From Candidatus Babeliales bacterium (GTDB taxonomy: Bacteria > Babelota > Babeliae > Babelales > Vermiphilaceae), in the NCBI GenBank assembly GCA_044451405.1, contig JBIOKB010000025.1, positions 1 through 12,544 of the forward strand: a DNA stretch of 12,544 nucleotides. The letters run 5' to 3'. The first letter of the stretch is position 1. Each line of letters opens with the position of its first letter. Shown here piece by piece: positions 1-6,000 of the stretch. Position numbers: made by a program.

Positions 1-3000
1 GTATGAGTTCTTGCGTGTCTGACCAAATGACTTTTATATGCAAAAACTTCGCCACATGTATCGCATACATGAGCTTTTTCTTTTTTGACGTTAGTTTTTT
101 TATCCCCATCAAATTTTCTTTTAATTCCTCTAGTTACTCTTACAGATTTCTGAGCAGTGGCTGCTTGGGTAGCAGAAGTATCAGATAAAGTAGGTAATTC
201 GCCAATGGCTTCTTCCATTGCACTACTCATGCTCGTTGCACAAATAAGAAGCAATAGGGTTAAATTGGTGAATGTTGTTTTCATAGATTCCCGTCTTCTC
301 TTGTTTTTTCGGGAGGTTTTACATGTGCATTACCCGCATCAGGCATAGATAATGATTCGCCACCACGTGGGTAAGATATTGCTGGTGCTACTGCTTGCTC
401 ACTAAGTTGTGTTTGTCCTCCGGCTTGTTCTACAGAGCCCTGTGCGAGGGAGGGCGCATGATAATGGGAATGAGAATGATAATGTGTATGCATAGGGGCT
501 GATGAAGCTAACAGCGCAAAGTATAATGAGATTGGTAAAGGAAATTGTGGCATTAGTGTTGCGGCTGCTGGAAAGTATGCATAAGTTGTATGAGCGCTTT
601 GTCCTGTTGTTTGTGCAAGAGAAACTGAGGCTGATGACTTAGGTATATGAGCTCTTCCTATATGGGCAGTTAAATTAGCTTTCTTCCCATAACCTGCACC
701 ACAGGTAGCGCATTTATAAATGCCGCTTTCTTCTGTATGAACTTTTGAATGTTTTTTTAACGAATGTGATTGTGTATATTTTTCTCCGCACCCGGGGTGG
801 ATGCATACGTAAGCTTGTTCTTTAGTATGAGTTTTTATGTGTTGAGTTAAACCGCATTTTTGTGCAAAATCTTTGCCACATTTAGTACACTTGAAGGGTC
901 TTTTTCCGGTATGAGTTCTTACGTGAATTTTCAAACTACCGTTACTTAGAAAATCTTTGCTACATCCAGGATGCTTACATTTGAAAGGTCTTTCTCCAGT
1001 GTGAGTTTTTATATGATATTTTAAGCCGTTTTTAGATGTAAAACCTTTGCCACATTGATCACATGAGTAGCTTTTTTCAGAATCTTTCGTGCTCTCCGTA
1101 GCTTGCCGAGCTTGATTGCCCGGATAAGCAGAGGAGAGTTCTTGTTCAGCTTTTCTTGCAGCAACAATTTTTCTTTTTTTGTAAATGGAGCTCTGTGTAG
1201 ATGTTTCTTCAGAGCGTTCAACATTTCTTTTTTTAGTTCCTATTTGTGCTTGGCTCACTGAGTCAGCTGCGGCAGATATGGGCGCTTGTGCGGCCAAAAT
1301 CATGGCAGTTGTTTGTGGGTTAGCAGGGGCAGTAGATAAAGCGAGTAAGCCTTCAATAGCTTCTTCCATCGCACTACTCATGCTCGTTGCACACAAAAAG
1401 AGTAATAGAGTGAAATTAGTGAATAATGTCTTCATAGATTTCCGTCCTCTGGAGTCAATGAAGGGCCAAAAAGTACGCTGTTAGAATCAGATTCTGGTAA
1501 AGCGAGCGGCCCAATCAATGGAGTGGCAAATTCCTCCTGAAACGTGTCTCGATTCTCATTAGACATGCTCAATGATAATCCACCAGAATAAGGGATTGGT
1601 AATGGCACCACTGGTAACAGGGCGCTTGATTGTGTTTGAAGATAATGGTCTGTATGCATAGAAGCCGCGGTTAGCGGTGGCGCTTGAGATTCTGATGGCA
1701 CACCTGAATCGCTGCTGCTATGGCTGTGTGTAGCAGGTTCTGGTGTGTGAACACAGTGTTCTGCTAGGGTTAATTTAATTTTTTTCTCGGCATGAGTTTT
1801 TTCGTGTCTGGTTAAATTATATTTAGCTTCAAAGTTTTTGCCGCATATGCTGCATTTGAAAGCTTTTTCGTTATGAATTTTCATATGTCGAATTAGACTA
1901 CTTTCATGGAAAAAATTTTTACCGCATGTTTCACATAAGTAAAGTTGTTTTTCAGTGAAAGACTTTTCTCCAGTATGTGCTCTTATGTGGGTGATCAAGG
2001 TAACTTTATCAGAAAATTTTTTATTGCATCCATAACAGGTGATAAACTTCTTTTTGATATGTGTTCTTATATGTTTAGTTAAAAGTTTTTTGTCTGTAAA
2101 TTCTTGCCCGCATTTTTCACAGGTTAGTTTTGTATGAGTTTTTATATGTTCGGTTAAAATACGTTTGTATGGAAAAGCTTTATCGCATCCAGGATGATCA
2201 CATTTGCAAGGTGTTTCTCCAGTGTGTCTTCTGAAATGGTCGGCCAAATGACTGCTTCTTGAAAAGTTTTTTCCACACTTAGAGCATATATGTTCGCTCG
2301 TGCCCCGTTTTCTTTTAGTTCCCTTTTTTACAGTGGGCGACTCTTGGCTTTCTGAACCAGCGCCAGCTTCGGCTTCGATAGTTGAAGTTGTGTGTGTAGG
2401 CACACTATTTTCAACGGCTTCTTCCATAGCGCTACTCATGCCTGCTGCACACAGAAGAAATAATAGGATGAGATTGGTTAATACTGTCTTCATAGATTTC
2501 CGTCTTCTGGATTCGATGAAGCGCCAAAAAGTATACTGCTAAAATCAGGTTCTGGTAAAGTAAGCGGTGGTTCTGAAGGTGGCTCAGCTAATGGATTGCC
2601 AAATTCATCCTGATTAAACGTATTTCCATTCTCATTAGGCATGCTTAATGAGAATCCACCAGATAAATCAGCAGCTGGTGATGGTTCCACTGCTGGCGGT
2701 AGAGCAAGTGGTTGATAAGAATGGGAATGGGAATGATCTTCTAAAGTAGCTGGTGAAGGTGTGAATTGTGGCATCGGGCCTGCTGGAAGAAATGCATAAG
2801 GTGCATGAGCAGCGGGCTCTGCCGCTTGCGCAGCTAAAGATGGAGTAGGAGTTGTTTGGTTAGGGTTATGAACTCTGCTTATATGCTGAGTTAGTGCTCC
2901 TTGTTTTTTATAACCTATGCCACATATTGTGCATGTGTAACGCCGTTTTCCTGTATGAGCTTTTAAGTGTCTTTGTAAATCACGTGGGTCTGCGTAGCTC

Positions 3001-6000
3001 TCGTTACATTGAGCATAGGTACATTTGTATGGTCTTTCTCCAGCATGAGTTCTTTGGTGTCTGGTTAAATGTGCTTTATCGATAAAAGATTTGCCACATC
3101 TAGAAAAAGTACATTTATAAGGTTTATTTTTTTCAGAAGATCTTTTTCTTTTTCGCTCTTTTTTTATAGTGTGTGTTTCACTACCCGCACCGGCTCCGGC
3201 AGATACAGCTAGTTGGGTAGCAGGAGTATCTGATGAAACAAGTAAGCCATTAGAAGCTTCTTCCATAGCGCTACTCATGCTCGTTGCACACAAGAGAAAT
3301 AATAGAGTTAAATTGATTACTCGTGTTTTCATATATTTACCCCTCTTTTTCTGAGGCTTTTATACCTTAAATTTCTTGACTATTGTTTTATTCTATTAGA
3401 AATATTATCAAATATACACCAATTGTCAAAGGGGTTATTTTATATCCCAATAGTTTATACATTCGTATGGGAAAAGAAATGTCTTGCCCTGAGTTCTCAG
3501 GGAATGGCAAGGTAGGGGGTAGATTGGGTAGGAGAGTCTATGAGGAATAGCGGGTATACACTGGTTGAACTGGTCATTGTTATGTGCTTACTTATGCTGC
3601 TTATAGGGATCACCGTAGGCAATAGAGGTACTTCTAAGATAGGTGCCTGTTCTGCAGTATATACCCTGCACAGTGTTTGTAATTATATGCACATGCGTGC
3701 TCGTGCAACGAACCAAACCCACATACTTAGTTTTGATATAGAGCATAATACCTACTGTTATAATGGCATGCGTGAGCAGTTGCCATCAGGAGTAGTGTTC
3801 GGCGTTCTTGATAGAGCATGCGGGCCCCCTTCATCACCAGTGCGCCCTATAACGCATCCCATTACGGCTGAAAATCAATGTATAACTTTTACGCCCCATG
3901 GTATTATACAGCCTGGTGCAATCTATATAAAAACAACTGATAATAGCTGTATGTATGCGTTAAGTGTGTCAGTTGCACAAGCATCGTTTGTACGGATGTA
4001 TGAGTATCGTCATGGAACATGGATTTTATTAACATAAGAAGCTAATCATGATAGTGCGCTCTGCCAGTATTGGATTATTAATTGGATCTCTCATAACACT
4101 GGTGTGCATGCAGTATGATCCATGGGTTAAACAGCGTGTAGGAAAAGCATTTAAAGAGCTGTTTGAAACATCCATTGGATGCCGTATGCACTGCAGTGTG
4201 CAGTCGTTGCATTTGTGGCAACCGGCATTAGTGTTGCAGGATGTTCGCGTAACACCGCGTGATGAACAGGCACCATGGTACTGGACAGCCAAGCGCCTTA
4301 TTGTTTCATGTAACTGGTGGCATGTGTGCTGTTATGGCATTATTGATTTACATGTAGTGTTGGAAGATAGTCATACCTATAGTTCAGTTTCTCATGGCGT
4401 GTTAGCAATTAATGATCATGTTAATACCTTGTTTTTCGGCTCTTCTTCTTCAATTCCGTTATTTACTAAATCAGTGATCTATAAACGAGCGCACCTGCAT
4501 CTTGCTGATACTGATTCAGCAACTGATATGCATGTTACGTGGAATAGTGAATCAAAAAAAATCGATAATCATTTTAAATCTACTCTATATTGTATTGATG
4601 GTTCTTTAGCAGATAAAAATAAAACCTATGTTAGCGATATGCAGGGATCCGTATATCTTGATATGATCTTTGCCAATCAGCAGGTAGAACATAGTATGCG
4701 TGCTGATTGCTCAGTACGTCTTGCCTGTTTACCTCCTGCTCATCAAGAATGCCATATTGATGCAGAGTGGTATGGCAATCAGGGAACGCTACATATTGCC
4801 AATGATGATCATTCACTCCATATTACACCGGTTGCCATTTCCTCTGATAATAACGAATATACTGCCCATATGCAGGGTACCATTCCTCTTAATGTGCTTG
4901 CGTATTACGGGTTTGCGCATCAACATGACGCGTGTGCTGGTACGTGCAGTGTTGCTCTGCACGTAAAAAAAGATGCACATGGTGTTACTGCAGATGGAAC
5001 AGGTACGGTTGATGACGGTGCGTATCATAAAACATCATTAGGTGCCATTACGATGACTGGTAGTGGAGAGCGTGATGCATGGCATGGTTCACTTACTTGG
5101 ATGCCAACGCAGGATGTGCGTGTTGAAGGCGCGTGGCAGTGGCAGCAAGGGCGTGCGCAGATAGAATGTATGTTGCGTGGTGAAACACCGATTTCTATCA
5201 TGAATCAGTGGTATGTACAACCAGGAAGCACCGGATGTACTATCGCCTATGATCATACGGGAATAACCGGATCCTACCACAGTACTCTTCATAACACATA
5301 TCAGGATACAACAGTACAGCTCAACGGACATGGTACGTATAGTGATGGGATAGGAACATGGCATGGTACGGTGAATGATTGTGCCCATGTTGGCTCTCTT
5401 GCATGCACTGATACGGGATATGAAGGATCACTACGGTATAACGATGATAAACAGGCGATAGCTACTTTTGCGCTGCATAACACACAACTTTCAGGGTCTA
5501 TTCATATTCCATGGATTAAAGATATTGTTGTAGCACTGTATGGAGGCGATATACAGGGTGATGGCTCTGTGCGGTGGGATGTAGCAGATTATCAACACAC
5601 TCCATTAACCATAACGTGTACCCTTGATGGTACGCTGCGTATTCCACAAACATATAATGCTATTAATGAAGCACAGGGAATTATAGAGTGGGATTATAAC
5701 GCACGCACGATGCGTATGAAAAACGTGCAGGGTACGTTGTATAAAGGTTCCTTTGCCTGTCATCAAGCAACAGTATTCTATGATGATACGTGGCATCCTT
5801 TTTTTATACAGGCGCCCTGTATTTTTAATGACTGTTTATTAAATGTAAAAAAAGATTTATTTGCGCTTATGTCTGGCCATATGACGTACACGTATCAGGA
5901 TGCGCAAGCCCGTTTAACAGGACTTCTTACTATTGATCATTCACAACTAAAAGAAAATATTTTTTCTGAAGCATTTGCCAATCGTTTTTTACATGCTACT

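Follow-up and report, generated by a model that had tools for sequence, protein, structure and literature searches.

Tandem genes for leader-bearing C2H2 zinc-finger proteins in a Candidatus Babeliales genome: candidate DNA-binding effectors directed to the host nucleus

Described systems and their likeness to the locus

To our knowledge, few bacterial effectors read host DNA directly, the TAL effectors being the main example. These proteins, found in Xanthomonas and Ralstonia, are built from 33-35-residue TAL repeats and are delivered by type III secretion. They are bacterial, modular, sequence-reading DNA binders with nuclear import signals that act in the host nucleus, and a counterpart role is proposed for the five proteins described here. 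As no TAL domain occurs among the Pfam hits of the latter and no FHIPEP gene was found, the resemblance would be functional only. Ros/MucR proteins, cytoplasmic regulators with a single divergent finger, also hold a bacterial zinc-coordinated, C2H2-derived DNA-binding domain. No ROS_MUCR Pfam hit was obtained at E<=0.01, and a leader is present, so that residence in the cytoplasm is not expected, unlike that of Ros/MucR.

Comparable logic, in which a signal peptide, C2H2 fingers and an NLS lead to reprogramming of host transcription, has been described for MoHTR1, MoHTR2 and MoHTR3 of Magnaporthe oryzae. There, however, the producer is a eukaryote with an ER secretory pathway; MoHTR3 is described as small. 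Zinc-finger proteins of the host-associated Endozoicomonadaceae (Kistimonas and relatives) form canonical HTGE[KR]P-linked arrays, often in tandem, but are mostly leaderless (6/62 finger ORFs with a leader), in contrast to those of the Dependentiae phylum (31/38). Zinc-finger enrichment in Kistimonas is the subject of a passing published remark, and our literature search recovered no functional study of Endozoicomonadaceae zinc-finger proteins and, among the papers listed, none that connects zinc fingers with Dependentiae or phylum TM6. With eukaryotic Krueppel-type factors (ZNF568/ZFP568, CTCF, KLF4, Zif268/EGR1) the proteins share family, ligand spacing, Phe/Leu core, TGEKP-type linkers and fold; here, in contrast, the fingers are encoded by a 1-Mb bacterial genome, in an overlapping operon, behind a Sec leader and ahead of orphan disordered tails. 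Export of this kind, with a signal peptide ahead of a eukaryote-like domain, is reported for ankyrin-repeat proteins of the cultured relative Chromulinavorax destructans, a bacterium that the same article places in the host cytoplasm (PMC6561590). The domain differs, and the word "finger" is absent from the main text of that article. In the genome studied here, at least 12 of the 21 ankyrin-repeat gene models likewise carry a leader.

Organization of the gene array and its island

The window, that is, the whole stretch of 12,544 nucleotides analyzed, lies on contig C25. The minus strand of positions 1-3332 encodes three whole genes (280, 353 and 384 aa) and the beginning of a fourth, whose remainder and a fifth gene lie on contig C68 ( Table 1 ). 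C25:1-141 and C68:1-141 are exact reverse complements of each other. The five consecutive genes (the last two of 234 and 221 aa), the 141-nt contig overlap and the 4 bp shared by neighbouring genes, all claimed in the initial annotation, agree with the ORFs, coordinates and DNA read here. An ATGA overlap occurs at every junction, as between the gene 2 start and the gene 1 stop, and all five ORFs are intact and free of introns, with a GC content of 0.40 throughout. We read the five paralogous genes as one translationally coupled operon, and to this arrangement joined with a host-directed effector role for its products we give an even chance.

A purine-rich AGAGGGG lies 7-13 nt ahead of the gene 1 ATG. 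Farther upstream, a promoter-like site was found on the minus strand at 3429-3402 (TTGACA, 16 nt, TAATAT, with TG). Since such sites are not in excess in the divergent intergenic region (9 against 10.5 expected on shuffling), this promoter candidate is weak.

Table 1. Features of the zinc-finger gene array and its borders (positions on C25 unless marked C68)
Feature	Position	Strand	Description
Gene 4, 5' part	1..284	-	Leader, basic cluster, finger 1 (3-71); ORF 3-284 = 94 aa, open at contig edge
Gene 3	281..1435	-	384 aa; leader, basic cluster KKRKIV, five C2H2 fingers 647-1069
Gene 3 tail	EDGNL 284-298	-	Terminal EDGNL
Gene 2	1432..2493	-	353 aa; leader, basic cluster TKRKRG, six C2H2 fingers 1792-2292
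Gene 2 tail	EDGNL 1435-1449	-	Terminal EDGNL
Gene 1	2490..3332	-	280 aa; minus-strand ORF
Gene 1 tail	EDGNL 2493-2507	-	Disordered, Pro/His/Ser-rich; terminal EDGNL
Gene 1 fingers	2868-3119	-	Three C2H2 fingers
Gene 1 basic cluster	3141-3167	-	Residues 56-64
Gene 1 leader	3267-3332	-	Residues 1-22
Intergenic region	3333..3539	.	Divergent, upstream of gene 1
GspH-like pseudopilin gene	3540..4037	+	N_methyl 5.2e-4; one island border
Gene 4, rest	C68:2-562		Joined reading across contig overlap, 234 aa in total
Gene 5	C68:559-1224		221 aa; beyond window
GspE-like ATPase gene	C68:1242-2966		T2SSE 4.9e-142; other island border

The array occupies a variable island between the conserved GspE-like ATPase and GspH-like pseudopilin genes. 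The surrounding block (GspE, GspH-like, TamB, PLD, RluD, MgtE) is kept wholly or partly in the four relatives compared, and the TamB, MgtE and RluD-type genes listed in the initial annotation were confirmed by Pfam. In the closed 1.6-Mb genome G185, where the pseudopilin ortholog scores better (N_methyl 3.6e-8, weak GspH 0.0052), the same slot holds leader-bearing finger genes in the same orientation, one of them apparently split over two frames. Elsewhere the slot contains unrelated cargo in one relative and nothing in two others. Among the matches listed, no finger genes occur near the GspE-like ATPase in G188, G195, G202, G225, G226, G253, G255 and G257; adjacency of the array to this gene is not general among relatives.

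Fingers, leaders and tails of the encoded proteins

A strict pattern (C-x2-4-C-x12-H-x3-5-H) recovers 18 classical C2H2 fingers in genes 1-5 (3+6+5+2+2), while one additional finger of gene 5, with C-x1-C spacing, falls outside this count. The number equals that initially annotated, and the Pfam values given then (zf-C2H2 7.1e-30 for gene 2, zf-H2C2_2 4.1e-26 for gene 3) were reproduced together with the best PDB relatives, ZNF568 (3.2e-42, gene 2) followed by Aart, ZBTB24, PRDM9 and CTCF. The four window proteins reach 56.8, 102.2, 72.7 and 27.1 bits against zf-C2H2 (PF00096), all above the curated cut-off of 25.2, as are 11 of 14 single-finger matches in the genome. Hits to the dsRNA-binding types zf-C2H2_jaz and zf-met were weak and sub-threshold, and no KRAB, BTB or SCAN domain appeared among the Pfam hits of the proteins. 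An AlphaFold2 model of the gene 1 product comprises a leader helix (residues 2-28), three beta-beta-alpha fingers with pLDDT of 85-88 and a tail with pLDDT below 50. In a Foldseek search this model gave 143 PDB matches at E<=0.001, the top ones being DNA-bound finger arrays (CTCF, KLF4, WT1, Aart; target-normalised TM-score up to 0.66).

The several TGEKP-like linkers noted previously are borne out by AGERP, TGKRR, TGETP, TGERP, TGKRP, TGEKS and NGEKL (TGERP and TGKRP among those of gene 3), the remainder being non-canonical; among 100 five-residue linkers of relatives, TGEKP (26) and TGERP (12) together account for 38. By ligand spacing, Pfam score, linkers and predicted fold, the five products are classified as putative Krueppel-type poly-C2H2 arrays. 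At their core, the aromatic position holds Phe or Tyr, and the Leu hardly varies (entropy 0.31 bits). Across 252 fingers of phylum relatives, entropy peaks at helix positions -1, 2, 3 and 6 (3.2-3.5 bits), compared with 0.55 bits for the core Leu and 1.26 bits for the core Phe. Several fingers of the array have unusual contact residues (e.g. YRIE, SGSI) or non-canonical linkers, and these, together with the C-x1-C finger, suggest that some may bind RNA, protein or nothing.

All five proteins open with MKT, followed by a hydrophobic stretch and MSSAMEE, on a plan of MK, 10-19 uncharged hydrophobic residues and S-S-A. Leaders were called by a heuristic of this analysis (positive n-region, uncharged h-region, small residues at -3/-1). 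The array passes in 5/5 cases, as expected from the single export leader ascribed to all five in the initial annotation; 270 of 895 other ORFs of the genome (30%) also pass, so that the leader alone is only moderately discriminating. Among phylum relatives, 31 of 38 5'-complete ORFs bear a leader compared with these 270/895 (Fisher p = 2e-10, the relatives not being independent), which agrees with the annotated claim for most relatives' ORFs and suggests that the leader is a family-wide trait of C2H2 proteins in the Dependentiae phylum. Between paralogues, identity of the leader DNA is 74-81% and that of the flanking DNA about 30%; the nucleotide differences present in the leader and EDGNL segments are synonymous.

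A basic cluster, defined by pattern match only (at least 4 K/R in 6 residues), precedes finger 1 in 5/5 genes of the array, so the nuclear-import-like cluster described earlier is present, in one gene more than the four then counted. K-K/R-x-K/R clusters also occur in 5/5 of these proteins (control segments about 4%). In relatives, a basic cluster lies anywhere before finger 1 in only 13/38 and within the last 40 residues before it in 10/38 (control segments 4%). The tails are orphan and disordered. Four of the five end in EDGNL, as annotated, and gene 5 ends in LALDE. The EDGNL-coding DNA coincides with the required ribosome-binding region of the next gene, and the last gene lacks the motif; because of this overlap, EDGNL conservation may be confounded.

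Proposed route to the host nucleus and its alternatives

The genome encodes signal peptidase I, two GspD-like secretins (Secretin_N, weak GspD N0 domains) beside a PilM-like gene, a GspE-like T2SSE ATPase and two GspF-like (T2SSF) proteins; by gene content, a type II machinery appears to be present. No homologue of VirB4, TolC/OEP or FHIPEP (the type III export gate) was found in this 95.7% complete genome. Neither DsbA nor DsbB was found in it, a lack that would favour the export of zinc domains rich in cysteine. Substrates of type II secretion, for which we know of no linear signal, normally fold in the periplasm before their release, and the system provides no passage through the membrane of a host vacuole.

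The best explanation we can offer, held at about even confidence, is that the five proteins are Sec/type-II-exported, nucleus-directed DNA-binding effectors. Each would be synthesized behind a Sec signal peptide (roughly residues 1-22, cut likely after S-S-A) and exported unfolded. From leader cleavage onward we infer every step: signal peptidase I would take off the leader, and the mature protein would exit through the GspD-type secretin system; no type I, III or IV marker was found. Once inside the host, the basic cluster before the fingers may serve as a classical nuclear import signal, the 2-6 Krueppel-type fingers, differing at DNA-contact positions, would bind host DNA, and the disordered Pro/His/Ser-rich tail, EDGNL-terminated in four, could engage host factors. 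The observed basis consists of gene structure, finger fold, leader conservation, secretion genes, island context and phylum-wide spread. The effector reading of the initial annotation is supported, its sequence-level premises having all held, as did the additional predictions that were put to the test, and the proteins remain candidates.

C2H2 fingers are established binders of RNA or protein as well (TFIIIA, Ikaros-type), and the proteins could reach the host yet work elsewhere than in the nucleus, or on targets other than DNA, with fingers that bind host RNA or proteins and a basic cluster acting as binding surface. The sub-threshold zf-C2H2_jaz and zf-met hits, the atypical contact residues and linkers of several fingers and the scarcity of the basic cluster in relatives would fit such a role. 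We consider it unlikely, as TGEKP-type linkers are typical of DNA-binding arrays, variability is maximal at -1, 2, 3 and 6, every one of the best structural matches is a complex with DNA and the K-K/R-x-K/R clusters occur in every gene of the array. Somewhat less probable still is that the proteins stay periplasmic, surface-bound or in the medium, where they would capture nucleic acid, for instance for uptake by the adjoining pilus-like machinery, or serve as a buffer or scavenger of zinc. Taken alone, a Sec leader proves only targeting to the periplasm, and the array has a pseudopilin gene on one side and an ATPase gene of the GspE/PilB type on the other. Against this, the island is variable in content, the finger genes of the eight other relatives are far from the ATPase among the matches listed, and diversified contact residues with lineage-specific tandem expansion suit specific recognition over bulk binding.

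It seems very improbable that the genes were acquired horizontally from a eukaryote and now persist as functionless, decaying or neutral relics: although the tails are orphan and disordered and a finger gene of G185 is apparently split, the five ORFs are intact and translationally coupled, leader and EDGNL differences are synonymous, and the family is maintained and expanded in many genomes of the phylum. Least credible of all is eukaryotic contamination or an assembly chimera, to which we assign next to no probability. Outside the genome itself, sequence similarity is highest to zinc-finger proteins of animals, over the fingers only, but the genes overlap by 4 bp, lack introns and have uniform GC, finger genes fill the same slot in the closed G185 genome, and the estimated contamination of the genome is 0.32%. 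Bacterial synteny, conserved to either side of the array, rules out a eukaryotic contaminant, a conclusion that the initial annotation had also reached.

If the preferred reading, that of exported effectors acting on host DNA, is true, the array represents a second, independent solution to host-DNA reading, achieved through the general export pathway in a phylum of obligate protist parasites; it would parallel, in a bacterium, the MoHTR effectors of a fungus and be analogous in function to TAL effectors, and would show how a tiny genome steers its eukaryotic host when it has no injection apparatus. The finger family would constitute a natural library of arrays with predictable target rules. 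More tentatively, Dependentiae may have turned host-derived Krueppel fingers into large, fast-diversifying sets of secreted modular DNA readers that rewrite protist transcription without type III/IV injection. It is equally tentative that each genome holds tens of such fingers, arrayed in tandem in a lineage-specific manner and preceded by Sec leaders, in proteins that enter protist nuclei. Finger genes do form lineage-specific tandem expansions, and of 14 control genomes only M. jannaschii gave a C2H2 match. The spread proved wider than initially annotated (19 of 101 Dependentiae genomes, up to 21 matches each): C2H2 matches occur in 81/261 genomes of the TM6/Dependentiae phylum at E<=0.001, exceed the Pfam cut-off in 59/261 and reach 72 in a single genome.

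The finger array and its fold

The genome that carries the array measures 1.02 Mb in 89 contigs, with a completeness of 95.7% and a contamination of 0.3%. The window comprises contig C25 in full. Its first 141 bases repeat positions 1-141 of contig C68 exactly, as their reverse complement, and the five finger genes are distributed over these two contigs as listed in the table. At each junction between successive genes the ATG overlaps the preceding stop codon as ATGA, which points to one operon whose translation would be coupled. The array and the contig as a whole both have a GC content of 0.40, and C68 has 0.41. 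A promoter scan recovered one good -35/-10 promoter-like site upstream of gene 1, where the number of such sites shows no excess over the shuffled expectation. Among the public sequencing runs listed as holding words of this genome there was no RNA run; DNA runs with its sampled words belong to one soil-metagenome study, two of them at 10% and 5% and a third with almost none.

Coordinates of the array, its parts and the features around it
Feature	Position	Strand	Details
Gene 1	window 2490-3332	minus	ORF, 280 aa
Gene 2	window 1432-2493	minus	ORF, 353 aa
Gene 3	window 281-1435	minus	ORF, 384 aa
Gene 4	window 3-284, running off the contig	minus	234 aa when read through the C25/C68 overlap
Gene 5	C68:559-1224		221 aa
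Codons around Met23	window 3264-3275, 2425-2436, 1367-1378, 216-227
Tails of genes 1-3	window 2493-2860, 1435-1790, 284-650
GspE/PilB-type ATPase	C68:1242-2966		downstream of the array; T2SSE 4.9e-142
GspH-like pseudopilin gene	window 3540-4037		upstream of the array; prepilin N-methylation motif
Slot region	window 3333-4037, C68:1242-2966		relatives' loci L233, L234, L235, L236
Apparently split finger gene of relative G185	L236:10273-10891	minus	85-aa leader ORF overlapping a 135-aa three-finger ORF in another frame
PLD-like protein	window 6847-7599	plus	250 aa; PLDc_2 1e-26; hydrophobic N-terminal segment; next to TamB in relatives
Ankyrin-repeat protein	window 10472-11560	plus	362 aa; Ank_2 7.7e-15; hydrophobic N-terminus ending LSA-NE
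Partial ORF at contig end	window 12244-12543	minus	weak DUF7624 match (0.0056) only

By the strict ligand pattern, genes 1 to 5 encode 3, 6, 5, 2 and 2 fingers respectively (18 in total), and gene 5 has one extra finger with C-x1-C spacing. The four proteins of the window match Pfam zf-C2H2 at 1.8e-15, 7.1e-30, 1.6e-20 and 5.1e-6, and zf-H2C2_2 at 4.1e-26 at best; all 14 matches to PF00096 in the genome fall inside the array. Linkers between these fingers include AGERP, TGERP, TGKRP, TGETP and NGEKL. A repeat search of the PDB returned the same list of sequence relatives as the initial annotation, headed by ZNF568 (3.2e-42) and followed by Aart, ZBTB24, PRDM9 and CTCF. An AlphaFold2 model of gene 1, computed from an alignment of the five paralogues (A1) in which gene 4 was represented by its C68 part only, consists of a leader helix (residues 2-28) and three beta-beta-alpha fingers (pLDDT 85-88), with pLDDT below 50 in the spacer (residues 28-67) and in the tail (from about residue 160). 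Foldseek searches with this model gave 143 PDB matches at E<=0.001, the top ones being DNA-bound CTCF, Aart, KLF4 and WT1. The domain is a true classical member of the C2H2 family.

Genomic slot, distribution and origin

The order ATPase, pseudopilin, TamB, PLD, RluD and MgtE is kept wholly or partly in all four relatives whose ATPase flank was compared; the ortholog of the pseudopilin gene in one of them, G185, gives a weak GspH match too. The slot is empty in G236 and G241, where only about 20 and 320 nt separate the ATPase gene from its pseudopilin neighbour. In G245 the gap of about 4 kb holds three opposite-strand ORFs, none with a finger, whose N-termini are leader-like by eye; two of these (217 aa and 580 aa) could not be assigned to a family and the third (370 aa) contains a Peptidase_M15 domain and Cys-rich repeats. 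In the closed 1.6-Mb genome G185 the gap of about 5.6 kb is occupied by five ORFs oriented as in the window, again with leader-like N-termini by eye, and at least three of them encode C2H2 fingers (one above the Pfam cut-off, one below it and one visible by eye alone). Given that the flanks are conserved and the slot is either empty or differently filled, the array is located within a variable island whose site is conserved. Linkage between finger genes and the ATPase was rejected as a general rule, since the slot is empty in two of the four compared relatives and holds other cargo in one, and since in eight other relatives the matches listed, which do not include 453 weaker ones, are found on a different contig from the ATPase ortholog or hundreds of kb away from it. 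Finger genes in the slots of G185 and of the window are always antisense to the flanking genes, and the apparent split of one finger gene in G185 points to either a frameshift or an error in sequencing.

In the phylum, 81 of 261 genomes match PF00096 at E<=0.001 (59 above the cut-off), and by subset matches occur in 56 of 189 high-quality genomes and 49 of 145 genera. With no more than 31 candidates scored per genome, at least 22 genomes reach 10 matches, one has 72 with all candidates scored, and M. jannaschii is the only one of 14 control genomes to match. The 29 loci retrieved from 29 relatives contain 49 distinct ORFs with at least two fingers. One of the 49, a 145-aa ORF on the minus strand of L020, runs antisense to a second finger ORF and probably does not represent a gene. 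Tandem paralogues inside one genome have a common leader of their own, which indicates that finger genes have expanded locally and repeatedly.

Outside homologues of gene 1 align over the fingers only, and the homologue search points to no donor lineage: it recovered 16 proteins, with the window's own three as the only full-length relatives and 13 others (11 named animal proteins and 2 unnamed). A census of the linker HTGE[KR]P[YF]xC in 185,579 species genomes yielded at least 185 stretches (L040-L224), not a complete taxonomic count; the 80 titled loci listed are mostly from Endozoicomonadaceae (Kistimonas, Endozoicomonas, Sansalvadorimonas, Candidatus Endonucleobacter), with a small number belonging to Pseudomonas, one TM6 record or a Dehalococcoidia MAG. 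Canonical arrays linked by HTGEKP are common in Endozoicomonadaceae, including one MAG with large tandem sets of leaderless genes of about 240 aa and genes of Candidatus Endonucleobacter, and a few records from Pseudomonas and Xenorhabdus have them too. The Dehalococcoidia MAG contig, with 28 linker matches and many short ORFs, may be eukaryotic contamination.

Leaders, C-terminal pentapeptide and tails

All five proteins start with MKT, followed by a hydrophobic stretch and MSSAMEE, and all five pass the strict leader heuristic. Ahead of Met23, the small residues S-x-A are compatible with a site for signal peptidase I, which would cleave the leader there. Among the paralogues, DNA identity reaches 74-81% in the leader, versus about 30% in the flanks, and synonymous differences are present in the leader. 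A lipoprotein leader was discarded, as the residue preceding Cys is Leu or Ile and the Cys of gene 5 is replaced by Ser (by eye); also by eye, no clear Shine-Dalgarno sequence precedes Met23 as an internal start. In the relatives of the phylum, 31 of 38 finger ORFs complete at the 5' end have a leader by the strict heuristic, versus 270 of the 895 remaining ORFs in this genome (Fisher p = 2e-10, the relatives not being independent), and at least three of the seven leader-negative relatives have a hydrophobic N-terminus by eye. In contrast, a leader occurs in only 6 of 62 5'-complete finger ORFs from Endozoicomonadaceae-titled loci, most of which begin right at finger 1. The Sec leader is therefore characteristic of the finger family in the phylum of the window.

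Leaders of the family (loci L011-L039) often finish with a small residue, followed by Met and then Glu, Asp or Lys (SSA-MEE, YS-MQE, NA-MKR). This ending is found in 18 of the 31 leader-positive relatives versus 27 of the 270 remaining leader proteins in this genome (Fisher p = 3e-9). Its Met might be a residue favoured at +1, the relic of a former start codon or an alternative start site. A Pfam scan of 11 leader proteins, chosen by eye for a Met-type ending or an early basic cluster, recognized four ankyrin proteins and one GNAT; many other ankyrin leaders of this genome end in A-SEEE.

Four of the five proteins end in EDGNL, whose five codons show four synonymous and no non-synonymous differences. 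Since these codons occupy positions -17 to -1 relative to the start codon of the next gene, and since the pentapeptide is absent from gene 5, after which no family gene follows, EDGNL may act as a peptide motif, belong to the region used for coupling or ribosome binding, or do both. The tail of gene 1 (residues 157-280), searched exhaustively by phmmer against 1.84 billion representative proteins matched gene 1 and gene 2 only, and no usable match was obtained in the ESM Atlas. By these searches the tail is an orphan with no relative outside this genome, and any role assigned to it would be conjectural. Tails contain short His-Ser or His-Tyr runs (HSHSHS, HYHSHSHYH), genes 1-3 share a GG-x-SLSM-P/S-N/D-E block and gene 5 ends in LTLAL (pattern L-x-L-x-L) instead; no known motif matching any of these was found.

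Possible export and roles of the finger proteins

The genome encodes signal peptidase I, the T2SSE ATPase and two T2SSF proteins. It also has two secretins, which show Secretin_N and weak GspD N0 domains and lie on either side of a PilM-like gene. In the whole genome (95.7% complete), VirB4, TolC/OEP and FHIPEP, the export gate of type III systems, gave no match at E<=0.001, and homologues of DsbA and DsbB were not found either; disulfide bonds in the periplasm may form by a non-canonical route or not at all. The analysis establishes the finger genes with their fold, leaders, context and distribution, and the presence of secretion genes. The most likely reading, in which we place about even confidence, is that the finger proteins are exported by Sec, would cross the outer membrane through the secretin system, reach the host, enter its nucleus and bind DNA there. 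A nuclear-import-like basic cluster (at least four K/R in six residues) is found 10-39 residues ahead of finger 1, for example KKERKRKR, TKRKRG or KKRKIV; its presence agrees with the initial annotation, but the count of four proteins given there was too low, as all five have it. In the relatives the cluster is enriched and not universal: it occurs anywhere before finger 1 in 13 of 38, and within the 40 residues preceding finger 1 in 10 of 38, versus 4% of control segments.

Binding of RNA or protein in the host cytoplasm is an alternative that we regard as unlikely. In 252 fingers of relatives, helix positions -1, 2, 3 and 6 are the most variable (entropy 3.46, 3.22, 3.31 and 3.46 bits) and the core Leu (0.55 bits) and core Phe (1.26 bits) the least, and TGEKP and TGERP account for 26 and 12 of 100 five-residue linkers; this is the profile of a DNA-reading array, but it comes with the domain by inheritance and is no proof of function. 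A periplasmic, surface or extracellular role, such as the capture of nucleic acids or zinc, is given only a small chance. We hold it very improbable that the genes are neutral relics of gene transfer. Eukaryotic contamination, already dismissed in the initial annotation, is excluded by the position of the array, which occupies a variable island between conserved bacterial genes, in the slot that holds finger genes in G185 too; its probability is practically nil.

Bacterial TAL effectors are close to the nuclear DNA-binding reading in working logic, and the array proteins fall outside that family when tested for membership. The Ros/MucR family is also close in working logic, and the array proteins have no match to it in Pfam. 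Also among the closest in this respect are the secreted C2H2 nuclear effectors MoHTR1-3 of the fungus Magnaporthe oryzae. A literature search on eukaryotic-like and C2H2 proteins of symbionts led to a study of Endozoicomonadaceae (PMC12491435), which mentions zinc-finger enrichment in Kistimonas in one passage, and to one on deep-sea annelid symbioses. Among the papers listed, whose supplementary domain tables lay outside the search, none linking Dependentiae or phylum TM6 with zinc fingers or C2H2 was found, nor was one found on zf-C2H2 as a eukaryotic-like domain of intracellular bacteria.

A paper on Chromulinavorax destructans (PMC6561590), the main text of which lacks the word "finger", describes replication in the host cytoplasm, a signal peptide in 44% of coding sequences, and signal peptides in ankyrin-repeat and other putative effectors. 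By our leader heuristic, about 30% of all ORFs in the genome of the window are leader-bearing. At least 12 of its 21 ankyrin-repeat gene models also carry leaders. The ankyrin-repeat protein of the window is probably another exported eukaryote-like effector, and the PLD-like protein may be an exported nuclease or phospholipase.
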